Assembly (NCBI GenBank): GCA_002709835.1
Contig: PAQX01000033.1
Coordinates: 8,538-72,537, forward strand
Length of the DNA: 64,000 bases
DNA from: Deltaproteobacteria bacterium
Lineage (GTDB): Bacteria; Myxococcota_A; UBA9160; UBA4427
Direction of reading: 5' to 3'
Under the pieces are notes generated by a model. The model made no database searches and was not told where the DNA came from. It saw only the letters and a list, made by a program, of their open reading frames with translations. The position numbers were made by a program, and so were the translations under genes. Below, in pieces: positions 11,928 through 63,179 of the stretch (positions within the stretch are counted from its first letter, which is position 1; every line of letters begins with the position of its first letter).

Positions 11928-12023
11928 CTTTCGCGGGGCCTTCCTTCGGTATCTCGCCGGCCTGCGACGACCCGTTGCGGGCCGGTTTCGTCAGACACAC
12001 TCCATCATCACTCCCGAGGCAAG

Positions 12024-12470: not shown

Positions 12471-12474
12471 CAAC

Positions 12475-15443: not shown

Positions 15444-15794
15444 TCACATCTCGCGCTTCTGGACCCATGACGTGCACCAGGCCGTCGTCGGGACCTTGCC
15501 CTCCACGAAGAGCCCGCACTTACCGTACTCGCCTTCGTTCACGATGAGCAGCGCGCAGTTCCCGCACTGCTGCCCTTCTCGTTCCGAGTCGCCGATGTAC
15601 GCGACCTGGGAGAGCAGGAGTGAGTTGCTCTTGACGTCGGACACGAGGTCCGGGCCGGCTTTTTCGGCGTCCTCGTGGTGATCGGCGAGAGCCGGCACCG
15701 CCGGCGTCGCCACGGCGAGGGCGGTGCCCATCGCGAGTAGGTGGAAATCACGGCGACTGATCGCCTTCCGCGGGGTCTCTTTCTTCGAATTCAT
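15444..15794 (-). CDS. high-potential iron-sulfur protein (HiPIP) with a Tat signal
   Basis: SRRDFH twin-arginine motif. Cluster ligands CGNC-x13-C-x13-WC followed by TSW (GWCxxW-type). Lies 3 nt downstream of sdhB on the same strand. Confidence 0.9.
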   Translation of the reverse strand: MNSKKETPRKAISRRDFHLLAMGTALAVATPAVPALADHHEDAEKAGPDLVSDVKSNSLLLSQVAYIGDSEREGQQCGNCALLIVNEGEYGKCGLFVEGKVPTTAWCTSWVQKREM

Positions 15795-15797
15795 GCC

Positions 15798-16559
15798 CTA
15801 GGTCCTCTCTTCTTCGCGCGCCGCACCGAGCATTTTTCGCCGCAGATAGGCGTATTGCTCGAGTAGCGGGAGCTCCTTCGGGCACACGTCGTGGCAGCCC
15901 ATCAGGCCGATGCAGCCGAAGACGCCGTTCTCGTCCGAGACGACTTCGAACCAATCGTCTTCGCTCCGCGCGTCGCGCGGATCCCGCATGAAACGGGCGA
16001 TCCGGTTGAGACCAGCCGCCCCGACGAAGTCGGGATTGACGTTCGCCACGCCGCAACCTGCGATGCAGCAGCCGCACTCGATGCAGCGCTCGCCCTCGTA
16101 GATCGCCTGAGCGAGGTCCGCGTCCATGCGCTCCTCTTCCGCGTGGGCCTGGAAGGGCGCCTTCTCCTCGATCCAGCCCCCTACCTGCTCCGCCATACCG
16201 CGAAACCAGGTGCCGGTATCGACCGACAGGTCGCCGATCAGCTTGAAGACGGGGAGCGGCTCGAGCCGGATCGTTTCGCCGAGGTCGCGCGTGAGCGTGT
16301 TGCACGCGAGCCGGGGTCTTCCGTTGACGAGCATTCCGCAGGAGCCGCAGATCGCAGAGCGACAGGCGAAGTCGAATTGCAGGCTCGGATCCTGCTCTTC
16401 ACGAATCCGGTTGAGCGCAATGTACAGCGTCATGAAGGGCTGCTCGTCGAGCTCGAAGGTCTGATGGTGCGGTTCCGAAGACGGGTCTTCGGGGTTGAAC
16501 CGGAAGATCTCGAAACGAAGTCGTCGCGGCGTCTCGAGCGTGATCATTTCAGTGCTCAT
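15798..16559 (-). CDS. sdhB: succinate dehydrogenase/fumarate reductase iron-sulfur subunit
   Basis: Three cluster motifs: CRSAICGSCGMLVNGRPRLAC, CIECGCCIAGC, CIGLMGCHDVCP. ATGA overlap with sdhA. Confidence 0.92.
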   Translation of the reverse strand: MSTEMITLETPRRLRFEIFRFNPEDPSSEPHHQTFELDEQPFMTLYIALNRIREEQDPSLQFDFACRSAICGSCGMLVNGRPRLACNTLTRDLGETIRLEPLPVFKLIGDLSVDTGTWFRGMAEQVGGWIEEKAPFQAHAEEERMDADLAQAIYEGERCIECGCCIAGCGVANVNPDFVGAAGLNRIARFMRDPRDARSEDDWFEVVSDENGVFGCIGLMGCHDVCPKELPLLEQYAYLRRKMLGAAREEERT

Positions 16560-18523: not shown

Positions 18524-19323
18524 ACGGTGGCTCCGAGAAGAAAGGCGAGGGGCGGCTCGATCCATTTCGCGAGCACTGCCAGCGTGAGGAAACCGAGGCC
18601 GAGGAAGCCGTAAAGCAGAACGTGCTCGATCCGGCGGAGTGCAGGCCGTCCCAGTCGGGAACCGATCCCCCACTTGACGGCGAAGCGGTAGAGCCCCGTA
18701 CTCGCATGAAACTCGACGCAGAGCAGCAGCAGCGCGTAGACGATCCAGAGCCCTTCGCTGACGCGTGCCTGCGTCGAGGCGGCTTCGATACCAGTGCGGA
18801 CACCGAAGGTGTCGGTGAAGACGTCGAAACCGACGAGGACCAGGTGGAAGCTGCCGAGAACGAGCAGGATCATCCCCGTCCAGACCTGCCAGACCCAGAG
18901 GCTCGATTCGAGGTGGCCCGGCGAGCGTGCACTCTCGACGCGCAGCGGCTCGGTGACGGCGCGGAGCTTGCGGTGCTCCCGGATCTGGGCGGGGATCTTG
19001 CGGCTGGCCATCGCAGCGTGAATCAGAAACAGCGCGGTGATCGCGAGCACGGTCGGTTGAGCGATGTAGACCTCTTCGAGTCCGCCGGCGAGAGCGTCGA
19101 AGCCGCGGGCGCCGGTCAGGATCGAGCCGACCAACGCCATGTGACCCCACATGAAGAGGGCGAGGGCGACGCCACTTCCACCACTGATGAGCTCGTACCG
19201 AAGCTGTCGCCGGGCTTCGCGCCGTCGCTGAGCGCCGTCGACGCGGGCCTCCCTCCGCGCCCTCCGCGGGGTGGGGGTCGGGGGCGAGACGGGTCGATCG
19301 ATTTCCGCCGGCGCAGCGCTCAA
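18520..19323 (-). CDS. sdhC: succinate:quinone oxidoreductase membrane cytochrome b subunit (single-subunit, 5-TM, type-B-like)
   Basis: Five hydrophobic helices with conserved His residues (MWGHMAL, FLIHAAM, GSFHLVL, VEFHAST). Stop overlaps the sdhA ATG. The start is uncertain: the track uses TTG 19323, which overlaps the MerR stop, and an internal GTG is possible. Confidence 0.75.
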   Translation of the reverse strand: MSAAPAEIDRPVSPPTPTPRRARREARVDGAQRRREARRQLRYELISGGSGVALALFMWGHMALVGSILTGARGFDALAGGLEEVYIAQPTVLAITALFLIHAAMASRKIPAQIREHRKLRAVTEPLRVESARSPGHLESSLWVWQVWTGMILLVLGSFHLVLVGFDVFTDTFGVRTGIEAASTQARVSEGLWIVYALLLLCVEFHASTGLYRFAVKWGIGSRLGRPALRRIEHVLLYGFLGLGFLTLAVLAKWIEPPLAFLLGATV

Positions 19324-20315
19324 ACCTGGATGCCCTCGTGTTCGCAGAGCTCGGCGAGCAACTGCTCCATGGCCGCGCGCGCCTCGGCGGTGCCCTCGGC
19401 CAGCCGTCGGTGTTGCGCCGCGTCGGCCTCGTCCCTCGACTCACAGTTCCGCGAGTACTGCTCGAAGGCGACGAGTCCGGTGACGAGGGAGGACAGATGG
19501 TTCGGACATTCGCAGTCGATCGCCGTCGAGACCTCGAGGAGGCGGGCGAGCTGTGCATCGTCGAAGCGACGCTCGACTGGCCCGCTTCCCGCCGAGCGAG
19601 CGGCTACGGCAGGGCGCGGCGGCACCTGCTTCCGCGCGAGCCGGATGACGAGGAGATCGTCGAGCGTGCGCCGTAGCGAGTCGAGGGGGAGGGGGAGCCG
19701 GCTCGTCACCGCGCCTGCTCGACCGAGCTTGGCGAGCGTCGCGTTCGTTGCGAAGCGGTAGACGACGAGGACGGCGGGGTTGCCCGGCAGCTGACGCGCC
19801 CCACGGAGGGTCGGCGCGGCGATCGGCTGCCCCTTGTCGACCTCGAGCACGACGATGTCCCATCGCTGGTCTTCGGCCTGAACGAGGAACTCTTCGACAT
19901 CCGCCGCGAAGACCTCGACCTCCAGCCCGCCGAAGGCCGCGCCATTCGCCTCGAGTTGACGCCGGATCGAGGGCGAGAGCACCGCAATGCGCGGATCACG
20001 ATCTCCGTCGCTCGCGTCGAGCGGAATGCTGGCGAGCGATTCGTGTTCGGCGATTCGTCCCAGTCGTTCGCGCAGGCTTTCGTCGGGCAGGTGAGCGATC
20101 TGCCCGATCGCTTCGTTGCAATCGACCAGCGCCTTCAACAGCTGGAGGCGCTCGACGGTCTCGTCGTCGTATTGGCGTCGGCCCGTTTCGCTGCGGATCG
20201 GCTTGATCGCGCCGTAGCGCCGTTCCCAGGCGCGAATCGTGTGCGCGTCGATCCCGGTGAGGGATGACACCGTGCCGATTTGATAGAGGCGGACCGTGTC
20301 TTGCGTCGTCGTCAT
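19320..20315 (-). CDS. MerR-family regulator with a receiver-like middle domain and a Cys-rich C-terminal domain
   Basis: N-terminal YQIGTVSSLTGIDAHTIRAWERRYG is a MerR HTH. The middle reads RIAVLSPS...WDIVVLEVD...AVLVVYRF, a CheY-like beta-alpha pattern lacking the acidic pocket. The C-terminus carries IDCECPNHL...C...C. Confidence 0.8.
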   Translation of the reverse strand: MTTTQDTVRLYQIGTVSSLTGIDAHTIRAWERRYGAIKPIRSETGRRQYDDETVERLQLLKALVDCNEAIGQIAHLPDESLRERLGRIAEHESLASIPLDASDGDRDPRIAVLSPSIRRQLEANGAAFGGLEVEVFAADVEEFLVQAEDQRWDIVVLEVDKGQPIAAPTLRGARQLPGNPAVLVVYRFATNATLAKLGRAGAVTSRLPLPLDSLRRTLDDLLVIRLARKQVPPRPAVAARSAGSGPVERRFDDAQLARLLEVSTAIDCECPNHLSSLVTGLVAFEQYSRNCESRDEADAAQHRRLAEGTAEARAAMEQLLAELCEHEGIQV

Positions 20316-21154: not shown

Positions 21155-21333
21155 CTTGCCTCCTTCGACTGTGGGTGGACTATCTCCGTGGATCAATCGA
21201 TGTCTATGTCCAGGGACGCGAAAATCGGAGAAAAAGCTAGACAGGTCTTGATCAACCCCGTGGCCCACCGCAGCTTGCCGGCAAGGTCGCGGCATGGGAT
21301 CCGCGGCGTCGCGCAAGATGAGGAGGCCGTGGA

Positions 21334-22176
21334 ATGGCGCCCGAGGGAAAGCGGTTCGACGTTCTCGATGTCCATCACCACGTGGGAAACGCGTTCCGCG
21401 CCCTGGGCGGGGATCTATCGAGCGCGCCTGATGCGGAGACCGGGGCGTATCGATCGCGCGAGGTCGCGGATCGGCTCCGGATCATGGACGCGGCCTCGGT
21501 CGCGCAGGCCATCGTGATCCCCGGTCACGGGTACGAACGCGCAAACGGGCTCGCCGCTACGCGGGCCGAGAACGACGCCATCGCCCGCTACCGTGATGCT
21601 CGACCCGATCGCTTTCCTGCTGCGGTGGGCATCGTCGAGCCGCGCGATGGCGCGGCGAGCTTCGAGGAACTCGACCGGGCCAAGCAGCAGCTCGGTCTCG
21701 CGGGGATCAGCTTCCACACGCGGTTCCAGGGGGTGTCGCTCGACAGTCGATGGATCCTCGCGTATGTCGAGCGCATGGCGGAGCTCGGGCTCGTCCCGGT
21801 CGTTCATGCGATGAACGAGACGCCGTAGGAAGCCTTGTGGAAGCTCGCGGTGCTGGCGCGCTCGATTCCCGAGACGCCCGTCCTCGCGCTCGACGCCTTC
21901 TCTTCATACGAGGCAACCCGCGAGTGTTTCTTCATCGCGGAGGTCGCGCCCAACATCCTCTTCGATACGAGCCTCAGCTACAACTTCGACTTCATCGAAG
22001 ACTTCGCGCGCAGCTTCGGCGCCGAGCGCGTGGTCTTCGGCACGGATCTCTACTCGACGCCGGTGGGACGGCGGATCAGTCATCTGCTGCCCCAGATTCT
22101 CGAGAGCGCTCTGTCCGACGGGGAGAAGGCGCGGATCCTGAGCGGCAACGCACGTCAACTCTTCGGTCTCGCCTGA
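21334..22176 (+). pseudogene. amidohydrolase-2 family gene interrupted by one in-frame TAG (21826-21828)
   Basis: Track ORFs 21334..21828 and 21835..22176 are in the same frame. Joined, they give about 280 aa with DVHHHVG (metal HxH), ...VPVVHAMNETP*EALWKLAVL... and ...VVFGTDLYS (C-terminal metal Asp region). Confidence 0.65.
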
Positions 22177-46605: not shown

Positions 46606-49044
46606 TCAGTTGACGAGACCGCTCGCCACCAGATCGGCGACCTCTTCCGCCTCGAACCCGAGTTCCTCCGCGAGGACCTCGAAGCTATCCCCACCGATCA
46701 GCGGGGATGCGTGGCGCGGGCCGTTGTCGTAGCCCGAGATCCGGAACTGGTGACCGGAGTAGGGGATGCGGCCCATTTCGGCATGGTCGAAGTGGCGGTA
46801 GAAGCCGCGTTGGGCGTACTGAGGGTCGTTCTGGAGGTCGCTGCTCCGCTGGACGTGGCCCGCCGGCACGCCGGCGTCGACCAGGACCGCCATCGCTTCC
46901 CGGGGCTTCCGCTCCCGGGTCCAAGCCGCGAGCTCCGCATCGATCGCGTCGTGTGCCGCGAGGCGTCCCGCGACGGTCTCGAGCTTCGGGTCCCGCGCCC
47001 ACTCGGGATCACCGAGGGTCCGACGGAGCGCGGCCCACTGGGCATCGTCCTCGACGGCGATCGCGAGCCATTCGTCTTCTCCGGCGCAGGGGTAGGCGCC
47101 CTGGGGCGCGGCGTCCCGAGAACGGTTGCCGTTGCGGGTGATCTCGAGGTCCGTGGTCTGCCGGGCGAGGAGCTCCGGTGCCAGGAAGTGGAGGGCGGCC
47201 TCCATCTGACCGAGGTCGATATGCTGGCCCTCGCCCGTGCGGCGTCGGTGATCGAGGGCGGCGAGCAGGGTCGTCGTCAGGAAGCGCGGGGCAACGGTGT
47301 CGGTGTAGGCGTTCCAGGGGCCGACGGGCGGGCGGTCGGGCCAGCCGGTCAGGTCGAAGAAGCCAGCGACGGCGGCGGCGTGGTAGCCGTAGCCGGCCAT
47401 GTTCGCGATGCGTCCGGTCTGGCCCATCAGACAGGTGCTCACCATGACGACGCTCGGGTTCGCCGCGCGCGCGGCCTCGTAGCCGATGCCGAGGCGATCG
47501 ACGGCCCCCGGAGTGAAGCTCTCGAGGATCACGTCCGCCCACTCGATCAGGCGGCCCGTGATCTCACGCGAACGTTCGTGCTTCATGTCGACGGTCAGGC
47601 TGCGCTTCGACGTGTTGAACTCGCCGAAGAACTGGGAGCGATTCCAGCCGCGTTGGTCATCCTTGTAGGGGCCGGCGGTGCGCAGGTTGTCGGCCTTCAC
47701 GCTCGACTCGATCCGGATCACGTTCGCGCCGTGGTCCGCGAGGTATTTTCCTGAGATCGGACCGACGCCCACCCACGAGAAGTCGGCGACCTTGAGGCCT
47801 TCGAGGGGGTATTCGGGCACGGGCGTGCTCTCGCGAAGCGGGGTCCGCTCGCGGGGTGCCGCGTCGAGCTCACGTAGGATCTCGTCCGTGTGTTCTCCGA
47901 GCCGCGGAGCGCGCCGCTCGATCTCGAAGGGCTGGAGGCTCGAGCGCGCGAAGGGGCCTGGCGTGCGGGCCGAGCCGCCGCCGGGCAGCTCGACCTCGTG
48001 GAAGTAGGCGCGGTCCTCGAGCTGCTCGAAGGTGAGCATGTCGTCGAGGGTCATGACGGGCGCGATGGTGAGGCCCTTCTCGAGGCCGGGCAGGAAGAGC
48101 TCCCGTTTCGTCTTCGTCTCGAGATAGGAATCGACGGTGGCGTCGAGTTCCTGGAGGGAGACCTTCAGCTCGCCGTTGCTGAAGATTCGCTGGCTGTAGC
48201 TGTCCCAGTCTTCCCGGGCGAGGAAGGCTTCGTCGATCGTGCCCGCCTCGAGGAGGATCGGCGTGAGCTTCTTGAACGACTCGGTCGTGATGAGGGTGAC
48301 GACGTGGCCGTCCTTCGCGGGGTGGGCCAACTCGAGGTCCTTCGGGCCGATCTGGAGCTTCGCGGCGTTCCGCTCGTAGTCGAAGCCCTGGATCGGTTCG
48401 GCGGTCAGGCCATTCAGCATGGTCCAGGTGAGCGCACTCTGGGCAGAGACGTCGATGAAGACGCCCTTCCCGGTCGTGCGTGCGCGGGCGTGACCGACCA
48501 TCGCGGCGACTGCAGCTTCCGAACCTGCATGCCGCCAGGCCTGCGGAACCGAGAGGCGGAGCGGAGCGCGATCTCGGTCGCCCTGGAGCGACATCGATCC
48601 CGCGAGCGCCGCGAGGGTGAGGTCGGCAGCAGGCCAGTCCGCGGCGGGGCCGTCGCTTCCGAAGGGCGTGACGCGGACGTGGACGAGCTGCGGGTTCGCC
48701 TCGAGGAGCATCGCGTGATCGAGGCCCGCTTCGTCGAGGAGGCTCGGCGGACCGGAGTCGAGGACGAAGTCGGCGCCCCGGGCCAGCTCGAGGAAACGCG
48801 CGCGCCCCTCTTCCGTTGCGAAGTCGAGGACGACCGAGCGCTTGTTGCGGTTGTAGGCCGCAAACGAGAGGCTGCGCTCGCTCTCAGGTCCTTCTTCTAG
48901 GAGCGGGCCGACCTGTCGAGCGGCGCTTCCGTCGGCGGGTTCGACACGCACGACGTCGGCGCCGAGATCGCCGAGCATCATGCCGGCAATCTGGCCACGG
49001 ACATCGGTCAGGTCGAGGACGCGGTATGGCGCGAGCAGGTCCAT
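46606..49044 (-). CDS. tandem-fused family III (CaiB/BaiF) CoA-transferase, paralog of 8243..10663
   Basis: The signature appears twice: YRVLDLTDVRGQIAGMMLGDLGADVVRVEPADG and LEGLKVADFSWVGVGPISGKYLADHGANVIRIESSVKADN. 812 aa. Confidence 0.9.
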   Translation of the reverse strand: MDLLAPYRVLDLTDVRGQIAGMMLGDLGADVVRVEPADGSAARQVGPLLEEGPESERSLSFAAYNRNKRSVVLDFATEEGRARFLELARGADFVLDSGPPSLLDEAGLDHAMLLEANPQLVHVRVTPFGSDGPAADWPAADLTLAALAGSMSLQGDRDRAPLRLSVPQAWRHAGSEAAVAAMVGHARARTTGKGVFIDVSAQSALTWTMLNGLTAEPIQGFDYERNAAKLQIGPKDLELAHPAKDGHVVTLITTESFKKLTPILLEAGTIDEAFLAREDWDSYSQRIFSNGELKVSLQELDATVDSYLETKTKRELFLPGLEKGLTIAPVMTLDDMLTFEQLEDRAYFHEVELPGGGSARTPGPFARSSLQPFEIERRAPRLGEHTDEILRELDAAPRERTPLRESTPVPEYPLEGLKVADFSWVGVGPISGKYLADHGANVIRIESSVKADNLRTAGPYKDDQRGWNRSQFFGEFNTSKRSLTVDMKHERSREITGRLIEWADVILESFTPGAVDRLGIGYEAARAANPSVVMVSTCLMGQTGRIANMAGYGYHAAAVAGFFDLTGWPDRPPVGPWNAYTDTVAPRFLTTTLLAALDHRRRTGEGQHIDLGQMEAALHFLAPELLARQTTDLEITRNGNRSRDAAPQGAYPCAGEDEWLAIAVEDDAQWAALRRTLGDPEWARDPKLETVAGRLAAHDAIDAELAAWTRERKPREAMAVLVDAGVPAGHVQRSSDLQNDPQYAQRGFYRHFDHAEMGRIPYSGHQFRISGYDNGPRHASPLIGGDSFEVLAEELGFEAEEVADLVASGLVN

Positions 49045-49063
49045 CGGCGGCGGGCCCTCCGGA

Positions 49064-49450
49064 TCAGGTGTCGGCGTTGTAGACGCGCTCGGTGAAGCGC
49101 CAGCCGTCGGCGGTCTTCGTCAGCTTGTCGAGATAGCGGCCCGTGGTGATGACCTTGTACTCGGGGCCGGCGATGTAGCCGAGGAGGAAGGCGGAGCCGT
49201 TCGCCGCGTCGCCCTCGCCGTCGACGACGACGTTGGTCGCGTTGTGGCGCATGAGCGGCATCATCTCATGGGTCTTCACCGCGAACTCGGAGATCGCCTC
49301 CTGGCCCTCGCAGAGGGTATGGCCCGGGTTGAAGACGCCATCGGCGACGAAAAGCCCCCCGAAGGTCTCGCCGTCTCCGGTGTCGATCGCGGTGTTGTAG
49401 CGGGCGTAGAGCATCTGGATCTCGATCACGTCGTCGGTCGTCAGCGGCAT
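49064..49450 (-). CDS. SnoaL-like / NTF2-fold protein
   Basis: 128 aa from ATG 49450. [32 protein letters not shown]...[20 protein letters not shown] is the typical NTF2-like cone pattern. Confidence 0.7.
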
Positions 49451-53965: not shown

Positions 53966-54442
53966 ATGCTTGCAGTTGGGAGCGATGCGCCCGACTTCTC
54001 GGCGCAGGACCAGGACGGGAACACCGTCACGCTGTCCTCGTTGTCCGGGAAGTGGGTCGCCCTATGGTGGTATCCGAAGGCCTCGACGCCGGGTTGAACG
54101 CGTCAGGGCCACGGGTTCCGTGAGCAGAAAGATGCGTATGAAGGAGCGAATGCCGTCGTGATCGGCGTCTCCTTCGATTCGGTGGCGGATCAGAAGACGT
54201 TCGCCGACAACGAGGGCTTCCCCTACGTGCTCTTGTCCGACCCGGACAAGGCCATGGGGACGGCCTACGACGCTTGTCGCCAGGAAGGCGAGAAGTATTT
54301 CGAAGCCGGGATTCCGCGACGGATCAGCTACCTGATCAGCCCGGACGGCAAGATCGCGAAGGCCTACGACGTCGAGAACGATGGACTCGACCTCGACGGG
54401 CACGCTGCGGCGGTCCTTGCGGACATCCAGAGCGCGAGTTGA
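53966..54442 (+). CDS. bcp: BCP/PrxQ-type peroxiredoxin with in-frame TGA (54095-54097) at the peroxidatic position; candidate selenoprotein (alternatively a nonsense pseudogene)
   Basis: AGGAG SD plus ATG 53966. MLAVGSDAPDFSAQDQDGNTVTLSSLSGKWVALWWYPKASTPG-[TGA]-TRQGHGFREQKDAYEGANAVVIGVSFDS...LLSDPD...RISYLISPDGKIAKAY is collinear with Bcp over 158 codons. Track ORFs 53783..54097 and 54158..54442 share one frame. Confidence 0.7.
54098..54137 (+). promoter_or_regulatory. SECIS-like stem-loop immediately 3' of the in-frame UGA
   Basis: G54108-C54125, C54109-G54124, bulged A54123, C54110-G54122, A54111-U54121, C54112-G54120, G54113-C54119, apical loop GGUUC. An outer ACGC(54098-54101)/GCGU(54134-54137) helix. 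Loop centre is about 19 nt from the UGA. Confidence 0.45.
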
Positions 54443-55150: not shown

Positions 55151-55588
55151 TCAGGCTCGAATCCGCCAATGGACGAGCGTGTAGGGCGGCTCGGCCTCAT
55201 GGTGCTCGAAGACCGGATCGACGGTCGCGCCGATCGGGATCTCGCCCTCGGGAGGGGCCACGAGGTTGCCGACCATGCGGATCCCGTCCGCGTCGGGGAA
55301 CTCGACGAGGACGACCACGTAGGGGCAGGCCTCGGCGAGCACCGGGTGGACGGGATGATGCGGGCGCTGCCAGCTGTAGATCCGCGCCTCGCCGGGGACC
55401 GGCGCGAACTCGAGATCGAAGGAATGGCAGCGGTGGCAGAGATGTTCGGGGGTCCACTGCCAGGTGCCGCAGGCGTTGCAGCGCTGGGCGACGAGCTCGT
55501 CACGGGCAGCGGCGTCCCAGTAGGGACCGTCGAGCTCGTCGGGCATCGGCCGGGGCAGGCCTTCGGGCAGTACGAATGAATCGTTCAC
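55151..55588 (-). CDS. Zn-ribbon/OB-fold protein (DUF35 family)
   Basis: CNACGTWQWTPEHLCHRC ribbon followed by an OB-fold (YVVVLVEFPDADGIRMVGNLV). Lies downstream of a thiolase-like gene. Confidence 0.85.
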   Translation of the reverse strand: MNDSFVLPEGLPRPMPDELDGPYWDAAARDELVAQRCNACGTWQWTPEHLCHRCHSFDLEFAPVPGEARIYSWQRPHHPVHPVLAEACPYVVVLVEFPDADGIRMVGNLVAPPEGEIPIGATVDPVFEHHEAEPPYTLVHWRIRA

Positions 55589-55619
55589 GGCTTGATCTCC
55601 GAGGAATCGCGGACGGGCC

Positions 55620-56807
55620 TCACAGCGTGGCCTCCGAGCCGAAGAGGGAGTTGGTGGCCGGCACGACCATCGGTCCCGAGTTCACGAAGGCGACCTCGGC
55701 GCCCTCGACCTGATTGGGCGAGGTGCCGCGGATCTGGCGGACCGCTTCGATGTTCAGCTCGAGGCCGTGCATGTAGCACTCGGCGAGGTTGCCGCCGCTC
55801 GTATTGAGGGGGAGCTTGCCCTTCGGTGCGATCAGGTTGTCGAAGGCGATCACTTCGTTGGCGTTCTCGTAGGTGCAGAAGCCGTGTTCGATCAGGCTCA
55901 TGACCACGCCGCCGGTGAAGTTCTCGTAGCTCTGGACGACATCCACGTCCTCCGGTCCGAGCTCCGCCATCGCGAAGAGATCGGGCGCGACGGTCTTGAA
56001 GCTCGAGGTCGCATAGTCGGGGTTGTTGTGGCCGCCGGCCCCGGCGCGGTACTCCGCCCCCTGCGCCGCGCCGAGGAGGTAGGCGGGCTTCTGCTTGAGG
56101 TCCTTCGCGCGGTCCGCGGGCACGAGGATCAGCGCGGCGGCCCCGTCGTTCTCGAGACAGCAGTCGAAGAGGCGGAAGGGCTCGGTGATCCAGCGCGAGT
56201 TGTCGTAGCCATCCACGTCGAGGGGGCGCCCGTGCATGACGGCGCGCGGGTTGTTCTGGGCGTGGTGGTAGGAGGCCATCGAGATCGCGCGCAGGGTGCT
56301 GCGCGAGATCCCGTGGTCGTGCATCAGGCGCGTCGTGCGCATCGCGAACATCTGCGCCGGCGACATCACGCCGTAGGGGATCGTGTGGGCGTAGGAGCCG
56401 GCGAGTGCGCCGGGGTAGCCCGCGCCCGAACCGAAACGTCCGCCCTGGCCCTGGGCCAGCCCGCGGTAGACGACGACGCAATCCGCGACGCCGGCGTGGA
56501 TCGCCATGGCCGCATTCCCGATGGCTCCGGAGCCGCCGCCTCCTCCGCCGCCCCACACCATGTTCGCGAAGCGGAGGGACTTCATGCCGAGCGCGGCCGC
56601 GACCCGGTCCGCCGGATTCTTGTCGTCGGCGTACGAGGCGATCCCGTCGATCTCGCACGGATCGATCCCAGCATCCTCTGCTGCAGCGAGGATCGCCTTC
56701 AGCGTCAGCTTGAACTGCGCGTCTGGGGACTGGCCGTGTTTGTAGTAGGTCGTCTCGCCGATTCCGGCGACGGCGACCTGACCGCGCATCGTTCGTTTCG
56801 TTCGCAT
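55620..56807 (-). CDS. thiolase-like / SCP-x-type lipid-transfer protein
   Basis: Last 395 codons of the 734-aa track ORF: QVAVAGIGETTYYKHG..., ...NTSGGNLAECYMHGLE... AGGAG SD upstream of ATG 56807. Confidence 0.88.
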   Translation of the reverse strand: MRTKRTMRGQVAVAGIGETTYYKHGQSPDAQFKLTLKAILAAAEDAGIDPCEIDGIASYADDKNPADRVAAALGMKSLRFANMVWGGGGGGGSGAIGNAAMAIHAGVADCVVVYRGLAQGQGGRFGSGAGYPGALAGSYAHTIPYGVMSPAQMFAMRTTRLMHDHGISRSTLRAISMASYHHAQNNPRAVMHGRPLDVDGYDNSRWITEPFRLFDCCLENDGAAALILVPADRAKDLKQKPAYLLGAAQGAEYRAGAGGHNNPDYATSSFKTVAPDLFAMAELGPEDVDVVQSYENFTGGVVMSLIEHGFCTYENANEVIAFDNLIAPKGKLPLNTSGGNLAECYMHGLELNIEAVRQIRGTSPNQVEGAEVAFVNSGPMVVPATNSLFGSEATL

Positions 56808-56939
56808 CGCCCGTTCTCCTGCATGGGTGGCGAGGAGCCTCGACGATAAGCGGGTGGGCCGCGTCGCGCTCGCACCCCCCGCTGTCCGGCGGGGAGCGGA
56901 CGCGCCATAATCGAGGTTTCCGATCCGAAGGGAGAATCC

Positions 56940-57812
56940 GTGTCCGCACCCGTGTCCCGATTCGAAGCGCCGACCGAGGTCGAGGCGGCCGTCGCGCTGC
57001 TCGCCGAAGAAGAGGGGGCGCGCGTCCTCTCGGGCGGAACGGACCTCCTCGTCCAGATGCGACTGGGCGCCGGCGCGCCGCCGCTCTTCGTCGACGTGAA
57101 GAGGATTCCCCGACTGACGGCGGTTCGGCTCGATTCGAACGGCTTGCGGATCGGCGCCGCGGTGCCGGCGGCCGAGATCTATGAGAACGACGAAATTCGT
57201 TCGCTCTGGCCCGGACTCGCGGAAGCCACCGATCTGATCGGTTCGACCCAGATCCAGGGCCGTGCGACCTGGTCCGGGAACCTCTGCAACGCGTCGCCGG
57301 CGGCGGACGCGGTGCCCGCCCTGATCGCCTGTGGCGCGACCGCGGTCGTGGCCGGACCGAAAGGAGAGCGCCGGGTCGCGGTCGAAGACTTCACGACCGG
57401 TCCGGGCAAGACGGTGCTGGAGCGCGGGGAGCTCGTGATCGAGTTCGAAGTGCCCGCTCCGGCGGTCCATGCGAGCGACGCGTATCTCCGACTGATCCCG
57501 CGCACAGAAATGGACATCGCCGTCGTCGGGGCCGGCGTCGCGCTCACGCTCGACGCCGCGGGGACCGTCGAGTCGGCGAGGGTGGTTCTCGGGGCCGTTG
57601 CGCCGACCGCGATCCGCGTGCCCGACGCAGAGGCCGCGCTCGTAGGATCCCCCCTCGGCGACGAATCGCTCTCCGCGGCCGCCGCCGCGTCGACGGCCGC
57701 GGCCAACCCGATCGACGACAAGCGCGGGACCGTCGCCTATCGCAAGAAGATCGCCGGCGTCCTCACGACGCGTGCCGCGAAGGTCGCGTACGAGCGCGCG
57801 CAGGCGCGCTAG
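56940..57812 (+). CDS. xanthine dehydrogenase-family FAD-binding (medium, CoxM-like) subunit
   Basis: ARVLSGGTDLLVQM, ...IGSTQIQGRATWSGNLCNASPAAD..., ...DDKRGTVAYRKK... GTG start with GGGAGAA SD. Confidence 0.88.
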   Translation: MSAPVSRFEAPTEVEAAVALLAEEEGARVLSGGTDLLVQMRLGAGAPPLFVDVKRIPRLTAVRLDSNGLRIGAAVPAAEIYENDEIRSLWPGLAEATDLIGSTQIQGRATWSGNLCNASPAADAVPALIACGATAVVAGPKGERRVAVEDFTTGPGKTVLERGELVIEFEVPAPAVHASDAYLRLIPRTEMDIAVVGAGVALTLDAAGTVESARVVLGAVAPTAIRVPDAEAALVGSPLGDESLSAAAAASTAAANPIDDKRGTVAYRKKIAGVLTTRAAKVAYERAQAR

Positions 57813-57862: not shown

Positions 57863-58345
57863 GTGGCGAAGATTCGAGTCGAGACGACGATCAACGGGGA
57901 AGAGACCGAGTTCCTCTGCAACGGGCAAGAGAGCCTGCTCGAGGTGCTCCGGGACGGCCTCGGGATGACCGGCACGAAGGAAGGCTGTACGACCGGGGAC
58001 TGCGGCGCCTGCTCCGTCGTCGTCGACGGCCGGCTCGTTCCGTCCTGCCTCGTCCTCGCCGCGGAGACCGGCGGACGGACCGTCGACACGATCGAAGGCG
58101 TCGCCGATGGCCAGACGCTGACGCCCGTCCAGCAGCAGTTCCTCGAACACGGCGCGCTGCAGTGCGGGATCTGTACGCCGGGCTTCATCGTCGCCGCCGA
58201 AAAGCTGCTCGAGAAGAACCCGAACCCGACCGAGGCCGAGGCGCGGTATTTCCTCGCCGGCAACCTCTGTCGGTGCACCGGATACGACAAGATCATCAAG
58301 GCGGTCCTCGACGCGGCGGCCGTGATGCGGGAGGGGCGGGCATGA
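57863..58345 (+). CDS. (2Fe-2S)-binding small (CoxS-like) subunit
   Basis: Two cluster motifs: GCTTGDCGACSV...C and CGICTPGF...CRCTGY. Confidence 0.92.
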   Translation: MAKIRVETTINGEETEFLCNGQESLLEVLRDGLGMTGTKEGCTTGDCGACSVVVDGRLVPSCLVLAAETGGRTVDTIEGVADGQTLTPVQQQFLEHGALQCGICTPGFIVAAEKLLEKNPNPTEAEARYFLAGNLCRCTGYDKIIKAVLDAAAVMREGRA

Positions 58346-60618
58346 GCGCAGCCACCGACGATTCGAATCGCAAGTTCAAGCAGATCGGCAGTCGACCCAT
58401 CCGTCACGACGGCCTCGACAAGGTGACGGGCCGCGCCCGCTTCGGTGCGGACTTCACGCTGCCCGGCGCGCTGCAGGGCGTCTTCGTCCGCAGTCCCTAC
58501 GCCCACGCGAAGATCTTGAAGATCGACACGAGCAAGGCGGAGAAGGTCCCCGGCGTGAAGGCGGTGATCACCGCGGAGGACCTCCCGGAGCTCCCCATGA
58601 GTTGGGTCTCCCAGGGCCCTGCCGGCGTCGACTCCGGCGCGAACCAGCGGGTGATTCTCGCGCGCGAGAAGGCGCTCTATCACGGCCACGCCTTTGCGGC
58701 GGTCGCGGCGGCGACCCGTGAGATCGCGGTCGAAGCGGGTCGGCTGATCGAAGTCGAGTGGGAAGTTCTTCCGCCGGTCCTCTCGGTCGACCAGGCGCTC
58801 GCCGAAGACGCGCCGATCCTGCATGAGGGCCAGAAGACCGAGGGGGCGGGTCCGCCGGTCGAGGGCGACACGAACATCACGAACCAGATCGTCTTCGAAG
58901 GCGGCGACCTCGACGCGGGATTCGCGGACGCGGACCTCGTCGTAGAAGGCGAGTTCGAGACCCCGATGGTCCACCAGGGCTACATCGAACCCCATGCCTG
59001 CCTGGTCAACGCGCGCGAGGACGGGACTTCGGAGATCTGGTGTGCGACTCAGGGGCCCTTCGGCGTGAAGACCGAAACGGCCACGCTCACTGGGACGGAT
59101 CCGCAGACGATCAAGGTCACGCCCTCCGAGATCGGCGGTGGCTTCGGCGGCAAGATCCCGGTCTACCTCGAGCCCGCCGCGCTGGCCCTCTCTCGCAAGG
59201 CGGGTCGGCCGGTCAAGATGACGATGACCCGGGAGGAGGTCTTCCGTGGGACGGGGCCGACCTCGGGCTCCAAGATGAAGCTCAAGCTCGGGGCGAAGAG
59301 CGACGGCACGCTGGTCGCTGCGGATCTCCGGCTCGACTTCGAGGCGGGCTGCTTCCGCGGTTCGCCCGTCGGCGCGGCTTGCATGACCACGCTCTCGCCG
59401 TACGTGATCCCGAACTTCCGGATCCTCGGTCGGGACATCGTCGTGAACAAGCCGCGAGTCGCAGCCTATCGCGCGCCTGGCGCCCCGATTGGCTCGTTCG
59501 CCGCGGAGAGTCTCCTCGACGAGCTCGCGCGAAAGCTCGGTCGCGACCCGATCGACCTTCGCCTGCAGAACGCGATCGAAGAAGGCGGTCGTGCGAAGTA
59601 TGGCCCGAAGTTCGGCCCGATCGGCTTCAAGGAGACGCTCGAAGCCGCCAAGGCCCACCCGCAGTACAAGACGGCCCTCGAAGGCAACCAGGGCCGCGGT
59701 GTCGCGGCGGGCTTCTGGTTCAACGCCGGCATGCAGTCGAGCGCGACGGTGAGCGTGAACCCCGACGGCTCGGCGGTCGTGCGGACCGGCAACCCGGACA
59801 TCGGGGGGAGTCGCGCGAGCATGGCCCTCATGTGTGCCGAAGAACTCGGGATCGACGTTGCGCGCGTTCGACCGATGGTCGGTGACACCGACTCGGTCGG
59901 ACACTGCGACCCGACCGGCGGCAGCCGCGTGACCTACGCGACGGGTATGGCGGTCATCGATGCGACGCGACAGGTGATCGATCATCTGCGCGCGCGGGCG
60001 GCGACGATGCTCGACGTCGAACTCGACAGCATCGAATGGCAGGACGGCAATGCCGTCGCGGTCAACGGGGCCTCCGACAAGGGCTCGATCCCGATCGAAG
60101 ACATCGCCCGCAAGATGGGCGCGACCGGTGGCCCGATCGTCGCGAGCGCCTCCGTCAGCCCGCCGGCGGCGGGCCCAGGCTTCGGAGTCCACGTCTGCGA
60201 CCTCGAGGTCGACCCGGAGACGGGGGTCTCGCGCGTGCTCCGGTATCTGGTCGTCCAGGACGCGGGGAAGGCGATCCACCCGACCTTCGTCGAAGGCCAA
60301 TATCAGGGCGGCGCCGCTCAGGGAATCGGCTGGGCGCTCAACGAGGAGTACCTCTGGGACGAAGAGGGCAAGGTCGAGAACGCCGGCTTCCTCGACTACC
60401 GGGTGCCGGTGGCGAGCGACCTGCCGATGATCGACACGGTGATCGTCGAAGTGCCGAACCCGCTCCATCCCTATGGGGTGCGCGGCGTCGGAGAGACCCC
60501 GATCGTGCCGCCGCTCGGGGCCGTCGCGAACGCGATGCGCGATGCGACGGGGGTTCGTTTTCATCGGCTGCCGATGTCGCCGCCGAGGGTCCTCGATGCC
60601 CTCGAAGGCGCCGAGTAG
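58342..60618 (+). CDS. xanthine dehydrogenase-family molybdopterin-binding large subunit (aldehyde-oxidoreductase-like, not CODH-type)
   Basis: ATG 58342 overlaps the small-subunit stop (ATGA). ...GRARFGADF..., IGGGFGGK, AAYRAPGAP active-site loop (not VAYRCSFR or AYRGAGR), C-terminal YGVRGVGE. Confidence 0.92.
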   Translation: MSAATDDSNRKFKQIGSRPIRHDGLDKVTGRARFGADFTLPGALQGVFVRSPYAHAKILKIDTSKAEKVPGVKAVITAEDLPELPMSWVSQGPAGVDSGANQRVILAREKALYHGHAFAAVAAATREIAVEAGRLIEVEWEVLPPVLSVDQALAEDAPILHEGQKTEGAGPPVEGDTNITNQIVFEGGDLDAGFADADLVVEGEFETPMVHQGYIEPHACLVNAREDGTSEIWCATQGPFGVKTETATLTGTDPQTIKVTPSEIGGGFGGKIPVYLEPAALALSRKAGRPVKMTMTREEVFRGTGPTSGSKMKLKLGAKSDGTLVAADLRLDFEAGCFRGSPVGAACMTTLSPYVIPNFRILGRDIVVNKPRVAAYRAPGAPIGSFAAESLLDELARKLGRDPIDLRLQNAIEEGGRAKYGPKFGPIGFKETLEAAKAHPQYKTALEGNQGRGVAAGFWFNAGMQSSATVSVNPDGSAVVRTGNPDIGGSRASMALMCAEELGIDVARVRPMVGDTDSVGHCDPTGGSRVTYATGMAVIDATRQVIDHLRARAATMLDVELDSIEWQDGNAVAVNGASDKGSIPIEDIARKMGATGGPIVASASVSPPAAGPGFGVHVCDLEVDPETGVSRVLRYLVVQDAGKAIHPTFVEGQYQGGAAQGIGWALNEEYLWDEEGKVENAGFLDYRVPVASDLPMIDTVIVEVPNPLHPYGVRGVGETPIVPPLGAVANAMRDATGVRFHRLPMSPPRVLDALEGAE

Positions 60619-60643
60619 GCACGCCGGGACGAAGGGATCCCCC

Positions 60644-61231
60644 TTGGCGATCGTCCTCTTCTCGTCGGCGCAACAACGCTTCACGAAGGGGGAAGACAGG
60701 GTCGAGATCGAGGCGACCCGCGTCGACCACCTGATTCGTGCGCTCTACGCCCGATATGCCGAGCTCGACGGGCAGCTCGACAACGCGGCGGTCGCCGTCG
60801 ACGGTGTGATCCACAACGAAGCGGAGTACGTCGCCTTGCCCGAAGGCTGTGAAGTCCAATTCGTCGGGCAGGTCGCGGGCGGCTCCGGCGACGCGGTGAG
60901 CGAGCCGCTCGGCGGCGTCACAGGAGAGCCCCTCGGGCTCGCGCGTGCATGGCGAAGCGCGGGGCGAGGCGTCGCGATCGCCACGGTCATCGAGACATGG
61001 GGCTCGTCACCCTGTCCGGCGGGGAGCCTGCTCGCCGTCGACGAACGGGGTCACTTCGAAGGCTCCGTGTCGGGCGGGTGCGTCGAAGGGGCGGTCATCG
61101 AAGCGGCCGGCAACGTGATCGAGAGCGGAGAGTCCACCGTCCTCGAGTTCGGCGTCGCCGACGAAGACGCCTGGGCGGTCGGGCTCGCGTGCGGGGGTCG
61201 CGTCCGCATTCTCGTCGAGCGCCTCGGGTGA
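60644..61231 (+). CDS. MoaD/ThiS-like beta-grasp (80 aa, ends GG) fused in frame to an XdhC/CoxI N-terminal domain
   Basis: TTG 60644 (GAAGGGA SD). LAIVLFSSAQQRF...PEGCEVQFVGQVAGG, with GG at 60878-60883 and no stop. Then SGDAVSEPLGGVTGEPLGLARAW...AIATVIETWGSSPCPAGSLLAVDERGHFEGSVSGGCVEGAV... to TGA 61231. Confidence 0.7.
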   Translation: MAIVLFSSAQQRFTKGEDRVEIEATRVDHLIRALYARYAELDGQLDNAAVAVDGVIHNEAEYVALPEGCEVQFVGQVAGGSGDAVSEPLGGVTGEPLGLARAWRSAGRGVAIATVIETWGSSPCPAGSLLAVDERGHFEGSVSGGCVEGAVIEAAGNVIESGESTVLEFGVADEDAWAVGLACGGRVRILVERLG

Positions 61232-61923
61232 AGGGCGCGTTCCTCGAAGAGATCCTCGCGGCCCGCGAAGAGCGCCGACCCGTCGTTCGGCTCGTTTGGC
61301 TCGACGACGGTCGTGAAAGGCTCGTCGATCCGGCCGGCGGCGGGGCGGGCCTCGATGCGAGCCTCGTCGAAGCGGCGAAAGACGCGCTGCGCTCCGACAA
61401 GGCCACCCTCGTCGAGACGGACGGGGGGGCGATCTTCGTCCATCCCTTCAATCCGGCGCTTCGTCTCGCGATCGTGGGCGCCGTCCACATCGCCCAACAC
61501 CTCGCCGCTCTCGCCGATCGCCTTGGCTACTCGGTGACGGTGATCGATCCGCGGACGGGCTTCCTGACCGAGGCGCGCTTTCCGGGCGTCACCCTCGATG
61601 CGCGTTGGCCGGACGAAGCCCTCGAAGCGTTCGCGCTCGATGCGCGGAGTGCGGTGGTGACCCTGTCCCACGATTCCAAGATCGACGAGCCTGCGTTGTC
61701 GGCCGCGCTTCGGTCGCCCGCGTTCTACGTCGGCGCGCTCGGGAGTCGAAGGACCCAGGAGAAGCGGCGCGGTCGGCTGCGGGAAGCGGGGCTCGCGGAG
61801 GCGGACCTCGACCGGATCCATGGGCCGGTCGGGCTCGATCTCGGGGCAAAGAGCCCTGCGGAGATCGCGCTCTCGGTGGCGGCCGAGTTGACCGCGACGC
61901 TCCGCGCACGTGGCGACGCGTGA
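61228..61923 (+). CDS. XdhC-family Moco-insertion chaperone (Rossmann-type C-domain protein)
   Basis: GTGA-coupled start at 61228. LRLAIVGAVHIAQHLAALADRLGYSVTVIDPR...VVTLSHDSKIDEPAL...FYVGALGSRR. Confidence 0.85.
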   Translation: MKGAFLEEILAAREERRPVVRLVWLDDGRERLVDPAGGGAGLDASLVEAAKDALRSDKATLVETDGGAIFVHPFNPALRLAIVGAVHIAQHLAALADRLGYSVTVIDPRTGFLTEARFPGVTLDARWPDEALEAFALDARSAVVTLSHDSKIDEPALSAALRSPAFYVGALGSRRTQEKRRGRLREAGLAEADLDRIHGPVGLDLGAKSPAEIALSVAAELTATLRARGDA

Positions 61924-62558
61924 CGCGTACCGGAGCGGATTACGTCGCGCTGGTGCTCGCGGCCGGCGCTTCCCGCCGGATGGGCGCGGACCAGAACAAG
62001 CTGCTCGAAGAGGTCGGGGGACGGCCTCTCGTCGCGGGCGTCGTCGAGGCATTCGTCGAGGCGGGGGTCGACCGGGTCCTCGTCGTCGTCGGGCATGAAG
62101 CGGAACGGATCGAAGCAGTGCTCGCCGGTCGACCGGGAGTCGAGTGGGTCGCGAATGCGGCGTGGTCGGAAGGGATGGGGAGCTCGCTCGCGGCCGGGGC
62201 GAGCGTTCTGGCAAAAGAAGCCGAGGGCAGGCTCGACGGGGTGCTGGTCTGCGTCGGCGATCTTCCGGGGCTCTCGCCCGAGGTGATCGGGCAGGTGTGC
62301 GCCGCTCACGCAGAGAGCGCTTCGCCCGCGGCGATCTGCGTTCCGACCCACGGCGGGCGGGACGGTCATCCGGTGCTTTTCGGTCGCGTCCATCTCGACG
62401 CGCTCGTCGCGCAGTCGGGGGATCGCGGCGCGCGGGGGCTGCTCCTCGAATACGCGGACGACGTCCGGCGGGTTCCCGTCGAAAGCGCTGGGATCTTCGA
62501 GGACGTCGATACGCCCGAGCAACTCGAGCGCGCTCGTCGCGAAGTCGGGAGCCGGTAG
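61920..62558 (+). CDS. mocA: MobA-like NTP transferase, probable molybdenum cofactor cytidylyltransferase
   Basis: GTGA-coupled start at 61920. LVLAAGASRRMG..NKLL......PLV, ...GDLPGLSPE..., ...GHPVLF... is the MocA/MobA glycosyltransferase-A-like pattern. Confidence 0.85.
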   Translation: MTRTGADYVALVLAAGASRRMGADQNKLLEEVGGRPLVAGVVEAFVEAGVDRVLVVVGHEAERIEAVLAGRPGVEWVANAAWSEGMGSSLAAGASVLAKEAEGRLDGVLVCVGDLPGLSPEVIGQVCAAHAESASPAAICVPTHGGRDGHPVLFGRVHLDALVAQSGDRGARGLLLEYADDVRRVPVESAGIFEDVDTPEQLERARREVGSR

Positions 62559-62705: not shown

Positions 62706-63179
62706 ATGGAAGAAGTGCGATTCGACGACGTCGAGAGCCTGCAGAAGTTCGTGAGCGACGAGTTCGGTGAGTTCGGCGATCCGACCGAGATCACGCAGGA
62801 AATGGTGAACCAGTTCGCCGAAGTCACCGGCGACCACCAGTGGATCCACATCGACGTCGAGCGCTGCAAGAAGGAGAGCCCCTTCGGCGGTCCGATCGTC
62901 CACGGCTTCTTCACCCTGTCGCTCATGCCCAAGCTGAATGCGTCGCTGCCGCAGGCCTACAAGACGACGGGCGTCAAGAACGCGGTCAACTACGGCTCGG
63001 ACAAGCTCCGCTTCCTCTCACCGGTTCCGGTCGGTGCCTCGGTCCACGCATGCAGCCGACTCGTCTCCGTCGAGGCGGGCAAGAAGGGCGTTCGCCTCGA
63101 GCAGGAAGCCGCGATCCACGTCGTGGGGAGCGACCGCCCGGCCGTGCTCTACAACATGATCACGCTGCTCCAGGGTTAG
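62706..63179 (+). CDS. MaoC-like (R-specific enoyl-CoA hydratase fold) dehydratase
   Basis: FAEVTGDHQWIHIDVERCKKESPFGGPIVHGFFTLSL is the hot-dog-fold MaoC signature. AGGAGA SD. Confidence 0.88.
   Translation: MEEVRFDDVESLQKFVSDEFGEFGDPTEITQEMVNQFAEVTGDHQWIHIDVERCKKESPFGGPIVHGFFTLSLMPKLNASLPQAYKTTGVKNAVNYGSDKLRFLSPVPVGASVHACSRLVSVEAGKKGVRLEQEAAIHVVGSDRPAVLYNMITLLQG

Follow-up and report, generated by a model that had tools for sequence, protein, structure and literature searches.

A MoaD/ThiS-type beta-grasp domain ending in Gly-Gly, fused in frame to the XdhC N-domain in a molybdenum hydroxylase operon of a Deltaproteobacteria bacterium

A fused gene linking a sulfur-carrier fold to a molybdenum cofactor chaperone lies in a stretch of 64,000 nucleotides from a Deltaproteobacteria bacterium (GTDB lineage Bacteria; Myxococcota_A; UBA9160; UBA4427). 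The stretch, called the window here and used for all coordinates, covers positions 8,538 to 72,537 of the forward strand of contig PAQX01000033.1 (assembly GCA_002709835.1). On its + strand, a continuous open reading frame (ORF) runs from TTG 60644 to TGA 61229-61231 and encodes a MoaD/ThiS-type beta-grasp domain (residues 1-80), a disordered linker, and the N-terminal domain of XdhC (XdhC-N). The product has 195 residues; the 196 residues given in the original prediction, which was made from the sequence of this DNA, are the codons counted with the stop. Direct reading of the sequence places a Shine-Dalgarno-like GAAGGGA (60631-60637, +) 6 nucleotides 5' of the TTG. The start positions of orthologues, which use ATG, GTG, or TTG, align with TTG 60644.

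The beta-grasp domain occupies 60644-60883 (+) and ends in the residues VAGG. Pfam ThiS (PF02597) matches residues 9-80 with profile positions 6-76 of 76, so that the match ends exactly at the Gly-Gly pair, and it scores 24.5 bits on the full protein and 27.5 bits on the domain alone, above the curated cut-off of 22.5 bits. The moaD equivalog TIGR01682 (model length 80) aligns end to end with residues 2-80 and scores 25.3 bits, below its cut-off of 66.15 bits. Because of this score, the sequence is classified as a member of the MoaD superfamily and not as housekeeping MoaD. An AlphaFold2 model of residues 1-80 alone has a predicted local distance difference test (pLDDT) value of 90 and a predicted template modelling (TM) score of 0.79, with a flexible tail in which residues 78-80 fall below a pLDDT of 50. 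Foldseek matches this model to CysO (3dwg_C, TM score on the query, TMq, 0.82), human MOCS2A (0.76), and E. coli MoaD (1fm0_D, 0.72), with SAMP1 also among the matches in the range of 0.7-0.8. Each of the top matches by structure is an activated sulfur carrier or an archaeal modifier related to one. A search of the PDB by sequence profile gave marginal matches only (E 0.14 to a MoaD), and the structure-based search was needed. Profile, model, and structural matches agree on the MoaD/ThiS fold that the original prediction had assigned to these 80 codons.

The codons for Gly79 and Gly80 lie at 60878-60883 (+). Direct reading places them where they had been predicted, with no stop codon after them. 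From their conservation, they are taken to be the ancestral C-terminus of the carrier and a predicted processing site, GG/SG. The linker (residues 81-95; 60884-60928, +) begins with a conserved S-G(-D) and continues as a stretch that is variable among homologues and disordered in the AlphaFold2 model. The frame then enters the XdhC N-terminal (XdhC_CoxI) domain, which together with the stop codon spans 60929-61231 (+). Pfam XdhC_CoxI (PF02625) matches residues 103-170 with 83.8 bits, and the conserved cysteines of the domain are Cys124, Cys146 (in the motif SGGCVE), and Cys183. The model of the whole protein has two well-folded domains; between them, pLDDT drops below 50 at residues 76-92, and XdhC-N begins its first helix at residue 96. 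For this model, Foldseek returns the XdhC N-domains 3on5_A and 2we7_A as matches of the C-terminal part, and MoaD and CysO as those of the N-terminal part.

The fusion is conserved. A database search with the 195-residue product yields ~88 clusters (90% identity) of full-length homologues that are 54-98% identical and come from many independent samples, and the same unbroken ORF is found in 15 species-representative genomes. An assembly or frameshift artefact is ruled out by these protein clusters and species-level genomes. Among 34 aligned fused homologues, Gly79 and Gly80 are invariant (34/34), while the mean column identity is 65%. The codons GGC, GGA, GGT, and GGG are all in use at the two positions across orthologues. 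Since synonymous glycine codons turn over in this way, the invariance of the pair indicates purifying selection in the fused state and not mere recent common descent. Ser81 and Gly82 are nearly invariant, with Ser81 kept in at least 90% of the homologues and replaced by Ala in one of them, P0087. In the XdhC domain, Gly145, Cys146, Val147, and Glu148 are invariant in the same alignment. Linker length ranges from 10 to 38 residues, and the linker sequence is hypervariable and of low complexity. In homologues P0028 and P0036, a 12-residue unit, GDPLGEPTTAQA, occurs two or three times in tandem after the GGSG, which shows that expansion of the linker is unconstrained.

The fusion gene belongs to a compact operon on the + strand. 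Upstream are the genes of a FAD-binding (flavin adenine dinucleotide; CoxM/XdhB-like) subunit at 56940-57812 (NCBIfam XdhB_XDHase, 201.7 bits, below the cut-off), a 2Fe-2S (CoxS-like) subunit at 57863-58345 (~175 bits to the NCBIfam iron-sulfur subunits of the family), and a molybdopterin-binding large subunit, the Mo subunit (CoxL/XdhA-like), at 58342-60618 (Pfam Ald_Xan_dh_C, MoCoBD_1, and MoCoBD_2). The stop codon of the 2Fe-2S gene overlaps the ATG of the Mo subunit gene as ATGA at 58342. Downstream, the stop of the fusion overlaps the GTG start of a gene for the C-terminal Rossmann half of XdhC (XdhC_C) as GTGA at 61228. This separate gene (61228-61923; Pfam XdhC_C PF13478, 147.9 bits) overlaps in turn, as GTGA at 61920, the GTG of a gene for a MocA-like molybdenum cofactor cytidylyltransferase (61920-62558; Pfam NTP_transf_3, 125.9 bits), whose best NCBIfam match, TIGR03310 matur_MocA_YgfJ, reaches 143.5 bits and stays below the cut-off of 186. 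The carrier gene therefore stands behind the structural genes and is translationally coupled to those of XdhC_C and MocA, in the arrangement that the original prediction had described. Because the PF13478 domain is encoded by a gene of its own, XdhC is split here over two translationally coupled genes, and the fusion polypeptide contains no Rossmann domain. A scan of the operon for promoters and terminators found no signal over background.

The origin of the fusion can be followed in a Myxococcota genome (loci L007/L029) that carries the same seven-gene cassette in split form. Its gene order is FAD, FeS (iron-sulfur), Mo, an 81-residue carrier with a GGR-TGA end, a 102-residue XdhC-N, XdhC_C, and MocA. 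The stop of the carrier overlaps the GTG start of XdhC-N as GTGA, and the junction reads GGA CGG TGA / GTG AGC. The string GGTGAGCG is common to this junction and to the surroundings of an in-frame GTG in the window (60896-60898, +; V85), which matches the start codon of the split XdhC-N gene. This codon is accordingly the relic of the split start, put in frame by an insertion or deletion. In a neighbour-joining tree of the Mo subunit, the fused forms are monophyletic and the split form is their sister. Acidobacteriota branch next, with carriers that end at the Gly-Gly stop (GG-stop) or in short tails, followed by Proteobacteria, which are almost uniformly GG-stop. L025, nested in the fused clade, has lost the XdhC part and retains GGSG and a tail. 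Sequence comparison thereby establishes a derived fusion of single origin in a Myxococcota-type clade, made by an insertion or deletion that joined the carrier to the overlapping XdhC-N start. There is almost no doubt about the anatomy of the fusion or about how it evolved.

The homology of GTG 60896 to a real start codon bears on the reading that XdhC-N alone is made, from this codon, with the upstream 84 codons untranslated or vestigial. Public annotation leans the same way. In near-identical genomes (NCBI proteins MGB0618344.1 and MBB83548.1), the product is recorded as a 111-residue 'XdhC family protein' or as a 211-residue hypothetical protein. The shorter call, made by the Prokaryotic Genome Annotation Pipeline (PGAP), begins at the internal GTG, so that the beta-grasp is left unannotated and the fusion is unrecognised in public records. 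However, the upstream 80 codons are conserved as protein (54-98% identity) and encode a confident beta-grasp fold; a Shine-Dalgarno-like motif precedes TTG 60644 but not GTG 60896; and GTG 60896 no longer has the overlap of stop and start by which the split form is coupled. In addition, most fused orthologues have GTC, GTT, ACG, or ATC instead of a start codon at the position of V85, and a conserved internal start was rejected for the family. The GTG to which the original prediction had pointed is thus real and homologous to the split start, but internal initiation is not conserved, and production of XdhC-N alone is very improbable.

Most relatives of the beta-grasp domain stand free. With a profile of this domain alone, a search returned over 100 clusters of homologues that stand free and have 79-82 residues; many of these end exactly in GG. 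A hidden Markov model search of 1.84 billion cluster representatives (50% identity) gave 521 matches at E <= 1e-3, nearly all of them about 80 residues long with the end of the profile at the end of the protein. By sequence, the subfamily is small and clearly set apart from housekeeping MoaD and ThiS. The free-standing C-termini fall into three groups: many end exactly at GG-stop, some add one or two residues (GGR, GGQ, GGA, GGKA), and a few continue as GGSG with a short tail. A separate observation is P0342 (407 residues), in which a short-chain-dehydrogenase-like N-region precedes a C-terminal beta-grasp ending in GG; it may be a second type of fusion or a merged gene call.

A census with one genome per species comprised 77 loci from Myxococcota-type metagenome-assembled genomes (MAGs), Acidobacteriota (Vicinamibacterales), and Alpha-, Beta-, and Gammaproteobacteria. 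Among the carriers are the cultured organisms Stella vacuolata ATCC 43931, Stella sp. ATCC 35155, and Ramlibacter lithotrophicus. The beta-grasp ends at GG-stop in 52 genomes, is fused to XdhC-N in 15, and ends otherwise in 10, and the distribution of these forms indicates that a free GG C-terminus is ancestral. By tblastn, an orthologue of the Mo subunit (51-91% identical) ends less than 400 nucleotides upstream of the beta-grasp gene in 72 of the 77 loci, with genes for the FeS subunit upstream in 64 and for the FAD subunit in 63. XdhC-N (16 loci), XdhC-C (14), and MocA (14) occur downstream only in the Myxococcota-type group. When all flanking ORFs were clustered with no prior expectation, the Mo, FAD, FeS, and beta-grasp genes alone recurred widely and every other gene was found in at most 11 loci; in the Pfam-annotated examples, the surroundings of the module are otherwise unrelated. 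The conserved unit is therefore a four-gene module of FAD, FeS, Mo, and MoaD-like carrier that is present in several phyla.

Gene context thus identifies one orthologous, uncharacterised xanthine-oxidase-family enzyme, rather than XdhC, as the primary partner of the carrier. The survey of fused and separate genes that the original prediction had proposed bears out the fusion as a recurrent arrangement, but places the conserved link of the carrier with the genes of the Mo enzyme. As the module occurs in several phyla, mostly with no XdhC nearby, the fusion to XdhC is a derived event and not the defining arrangement of the carrier. Individual loci depart from the common order. Within the fused clade, L005/L006 and L024 have the structural genes in the order Mo, FAD, FeS, and the fusion gene then follows the FeS gene. 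In L011/L012 (a Pseudomonadaceae MAG, GCA_024743435.1), the carrier follows a lone Mo subunit gene, with no FAD or FeS genes within 10 kb. In L031 (an Acidobacteriota MAG), two tandem FAD/FeS/Mo sets lie upstream of a single carrier gene, and the fragmented tblastn matches there suggest frameshifts or a duplicated module.

So close a tie to one enzyme could mean that the beta-grasp is a non-catalytic fourth subunit or an assembly factor of the Mo hydroxylase with no role as a sulfur carrier. For example, the funnel for substrate or cofactor in the apo large subunit could be blocked by the tail of the beta-grasp, and the fusion to XdhC-N would then join two assembly factors. The strongest association of the domain is indeed positional, since its gene directly follows that of the Mo subunit in 72 of 77 genomes of otherwise unrelated context, at a place where operons of the xanthine oxidase family often carry a specific chaperone, and the family is small (521 clusters) and well apart from housekeeping MoaD and ThiS. 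Set against this are features typical of activated carriers, namely the exact GG-stop, the disorder of the tail, and the nearest matches by structure. Moreover, no xanthine-oxidase-family enzyme with a beta-grasp subunit was found among the solved relatives or in the literature searched. A purely structural role of this kind is considered improbable.

MoaD-type carriers need a free terminal glycine for adenylation and thiocarboxylation. In the primary product of the window, the Gly-Gly pair is internal, whereas free-standing orthologues end at GG-stop in 52 of 77 loci. The leading hypothesis of the original prediction was a carrier tethered to XdhC that would deliver sulfur, for example the terminal sulfido ligand; the computed evidence speaks neither for nor against it. 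By known chemistry, no thiocarboxylation is possible on an uncleaved tether.

Two MoaD-MoaE fusions offer a precedent for release by cleavage. In MoaX of M. tuberculosis (Rv3323c), function depends on a cut between Gly82 and Ser83 (PMC4326299). The D. radiodurans fusion DR2607 is cut by the JAMM protease DR0402 (PMC8832034). Like the product described here, both have an N-terminal MoaD-type beta-grasp and an internal Gly-Gly followed by a partner from molybdenum cofactor metabolism, and the GG/S junction of MoaX is the same as in the window, where VAGG/SG has the internal GG followed by Ser as in MoaX-type precursors. They differ in that their partner is MoaE, the catalytic partner of the carrier, and not the N-domain of the XdhC insertion chaperone. 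In the window, furthermore, the carrier is a non-housekeeping one in the operon of a single enzyme, MoaE, an activating (E1) enzyme, and a JAMM protease are absent nearby, and cleavage is only predicted. A polyprotein processed after the Gly-Gly, offered as an alternative in the original prediction, is the reading best supported by the comparative evidence, because the pair is invariant in 34 of 34 fused homologues, Ser comes next as at the MoaX site, and free orthologues end at GG-stop.

By analogy with MoaX, the fusion would be a precursor that is cut after GG/S to release a sulfur carrier dedicated to one enzyme. A protease that acts in trans and is encoded outside the locus would split the 195-residue chain at the Gly80-Ser81 bond, with the JAMM/MPN+ family as the precedent. 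The freed carrier would be adenylated and thiocarboxylated at Gly80 by a MoeB/ThiF-type E1, also encoded elsewhere, and would give its sulfur for the cytosine-dinucleotide molybdenum cofactor of the cognate enzyme. The sulfur could go to the dithiolene of molybdopterin, as expected of a dedicated MoaD paralogue, or, by what would be a new route, to the terminal Mo=S. The freed XdhC-N would pair with the XdhC Rossmann half and hold the cofactor, to which MocA would add cytidine monophosphate (CMP). This working as a whole is given about an even chance. Autoproteolysis at the Gly-Ser bond by an N-to-O acyl shift was considered as the means of cleavage and not adopted, given that Ser is replaced by Ala in P0087 and that R, Q, A, M, or E follows GG in free-standing forms.

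Several observations weigh against processing into an activated carrier. No ThiF/MoeB, JAMM/MPN, MoaE, rhodanese, or cysteine desulfurase was found with Pfam among ~60 ORFs scanned in the window, nor in eight Pfam-annotated related loci. The original prediction had proposed a search for a MoeB/ThiF-type E1 and a JAMM/MPN protease, and neither was found in the window or within 10 kb in ~90 related loci. MoaE is not among the recurrent neighbours of the 77 loci, but the carrier may pair with it in trans. As no local partners were found, all enzymatic partners have to be assumed to be encoded elsewhere. The TIGR01682 score of 25 bits against a cut-off of 66 also counts here. The carriers of L062 (a Rhodospirillales MAG) and L068 (a MAG labelled Asaia bogorensis) end in KIGAG, that is G-A-G instead of GG, which is unexpected for MoaD-like chemistry; MoaX function is abolished when the penultimate Gly is changed to Ala (PMC4326299). 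Finally, cleavage would deprive the fusion of any benefit as a tether, and it may then be neutral read-through, tolerated because the lineage has a suitable protease. C-terminal extensions are frequent in the Myxococcota/Acidobacteriota branch and near absent in Proteobacteria, which fits such tolerated read-through.

The same extensions are open to another reading, in which the fusion works uncleaved. The beta-grasp would be a docking or adaptor domain that mimics MoaD and, on its flexible linker, recruits a partner to XdhC. The partner could be the cognate Mo subunit, MoaE/molybdopterin synthase, MoeB, or a sulfurtransferase, and cofactor synthesis, sulfuration, and insertion would be channelled with no thiocarboxylate on the beta-grasp. 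Extensions have appeared repeatedly in the Myxococcota/Acidobacteriota branch (GGR, GGSG...RR, GGSPEETGA, GGESFDQRLSHI, and the full fusion), neither a protease nor an E1 is encoded nearby, GGSG is a typical flexible hinge, and linkers of 10-38 residues suit a tether. A structure has also been solved for a MoaD-related protein that carries an additional C-terminal domain, 1v8c of T. thermophilus. This 'MoaD related protein' resembles the fusion in having an N-terminal MoaD-like beta-grasp and a further domain (Foldseek TMq 0.78), but its C-terminal domain is a different one and it has no link to XdhC or a Mo hydroxylase operon. An adaptor does not readily account for the two glycines, which are strictly kept under synonymous turnover, beyond the needs of a hinge, while the rest of the linker drifts. 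Outside the Myxococcota/Acidobacteriota branch, nearly all members end exactly in GG, which points to chemistry on the terminal carboxylate. Beta-grasp families that have turned purely structural, such as TmoB and RnfH, are not known to keep a C-terminal GG. An uncleaved adaptor is therefore judged unlikely.

If the processed carrier is the correct reading, the question becomes where its sulfur goes. Sulfuration of the cofactor takes place on XdhC, ahead of insertion (PMC2997495, PMC13653126); XdhC holds the cofactor while a cysteine desulfurase swaps the oxo for the sulfido ligand (PMC13653126). The locus resembles those of the XdhC/PaoD/CoxF chaperones in that XdhC N- and Rossmann domains are encoded beside a xanthine-oxidase-family enzyme together with MocA, and differs in that XdhC comes in two genes, the N-half with a sulfur-carrier domain. 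In the XdhC and NifS4 system of Rhodobacter capsulatus, by contrast, the sulfur donor is a cysteine desulfurase persulfide. The restriction to one enzyme and the fusion to XdhC, both read from gene arrangement, slightly favour a role of the carrier at the enzyme or its chaperone over a general supply of molybdopterin. In the more specific proposal, the carrier is a thiocarboxylate donor that installs or re-installs the terminal Mo=S ligand, on XdhC or inside the assembled enzyme. Such a route would be independent of the cysteine desulfurase persulfide at the last step, and the XdhC-N fusion would mark its site of action. This proposal is rather doubtful. The words MoaD and thiocarboxylate are absent from an October 2026 review of the sulfido ligand (PMC13653126).

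Other systems show how a carrier can be tied to one enzyme or sulfur mobilisation to a cofactor-holding module. MoaD paralogues are found in operons of tungsten enzymes of the aldehyde:ferredoxin oxidoreductase (AOR) family, including an AOR-MoaD fusion in Azoarcus (Iyer, Burroughs, Aravind 2006, PMC1779556). There, too, a MoaD-like gene is dedicated to, and sometimes fused with, one pterin-cofactor enzyme system. The AOR operons, however, also encode MoeB, MoaE, and MoeA, a full sulfur relay, whereas the present module has the carrier only; MoaD is C-terminal in the Azoarcus fusion, so its GG stays free; and the enzyme belongs to the AOR family and not to the xanthine oxidase family. The eukaryotic molybdenum cofactor sulfurase ABA3/MOCOS is an analogy of working only, in which a sulfur-mobilising module is fused to a cofactor-holding one. 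Its domains are unrelated (NifS-like and a MOSC-type C-terminal one), it uses a persulfide instead of a thiocarboxylate, and there is no homology. The same 2006 survey of prokaryotic beta-grasp proteins lists fusions of MoaD/ThiS to MoaE, ThiG, ThiF, AOR, and sulfite reductase, and XdhC is not listed (PMC1779556). Literature searches on XdhC with MoaD, beta-grasp, or fusion, and on MoaD-like genes with xanthine dehydrogenase operons, found no description of the fusion or of the module.

The substrate of the Mo enzyme was not identified, as the Mo subunit falls below every NCBIfam equivalog cut-off. Its nearest solved relatives, at only ~270 bits, are CoxL, 4-hydroxybenzoyl-CoA reductase alpha, and Kdh. 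It lacks the active-site Cys of CO dehydrogenase and reads AYRAPGAP. A gene for a MaoC-type dehydratase (62706-63179, +) is a conserved downstream neighbour inside the fused clade: it follows MocA in L014-L024 and L026 (65-90% identity by tblastn), and Pfam MaoC_dehydratas is recorded for the orthologue in L001. Elsewhere in the window are two double-length coenzyme A (CoA)-transferase family III genes of ~810-840 residues (8234-10663, +, and 46606-49119, -), each with two CoA_transf_3 stretches, and two gene pairs of a DUF35/ChsH2-type OB-fold (oligonucleotide/oligosaccharide-binding fold) protein and a thiolase-like protein (11928-13665, +, and 55151-56900, -). Together with MaoC, these CoA-transferases and thiolase-like/DUF35 pairs hint at acyl-CoA metabolism, or an acyl-CoA substrate, around the Mo enzyme. 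This gene context is not kept outside the fused clade.

Three further loci of the window are unrelated to the cassette. A Bcp/PrxQ-type peroxiredoxin gene at 53966-54442 (+) has an in-frame TGA (54095-54097) at the position of the expected peroxidatic Cys (..WWYPKASTPG-TGA-TRQGHGF..). With the TGA read as Cys, the whole protein matches AhpC-TSA with 117.8 bits over profile positions 1-123 of 124, and a stable hairpin (-18.5 kcal/mol, z -2.2) begins 3 nucleotides after the UGA. This sequence is probably that of a selenocysteine peroxiredoxin with a bacterial selenocysteine insertion sequence (SECIS) element. An Amidohydro_2 gene at 21322-22176 (+) is broken by an in-frame TAG (21826-21828); one and the same Pfam model covers both halves, with its positions 2-144 and 198-289, which points to a pseudogene or to an error in sequencing. 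A succinate dehydrogenase/fumarate reductase-type cluster with flavoprotein, Fe-S, and membrane subunits lies at 15801-19440 (-), adjoined by a gene for a high-potential iron-sulfur protein (HiPIP) at 15447-15797 (-).

What is new in the fusion is XdhC as the partner and an operon module that had gone unrecognised; the kind is known, a processed MoaD-type fusion or a MoaD paralogue embedded with an enzyme. Beside MoaD-MoaE and the archaeal SAMP-type linear fusions, it would bring to three the kinds of MoaD fusion expected to need cleavage after GG. If the carrier merely boosts molybdopterin synthesis for a highly expressed enzyme, the arrangement amounts to tidy operon evolution and little more. 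The interest would rise sharply if the carrier proved to deliver the sulfido ligand. How bacteria deliver this essential ligand to the cofactor of the xanthine oxidase family is understood only in outline, with XdhC and a cysteine desulfurase as the known route. A carrier that is locked to one Mo hydroxylase, and in one clade is fused to the sulfuration chaperone, is a candidate for a missing or alternative step of this maturation, and the fusion points to an unrecognised, enzyme-specific step in the maturation of the molybdenum cofactor.

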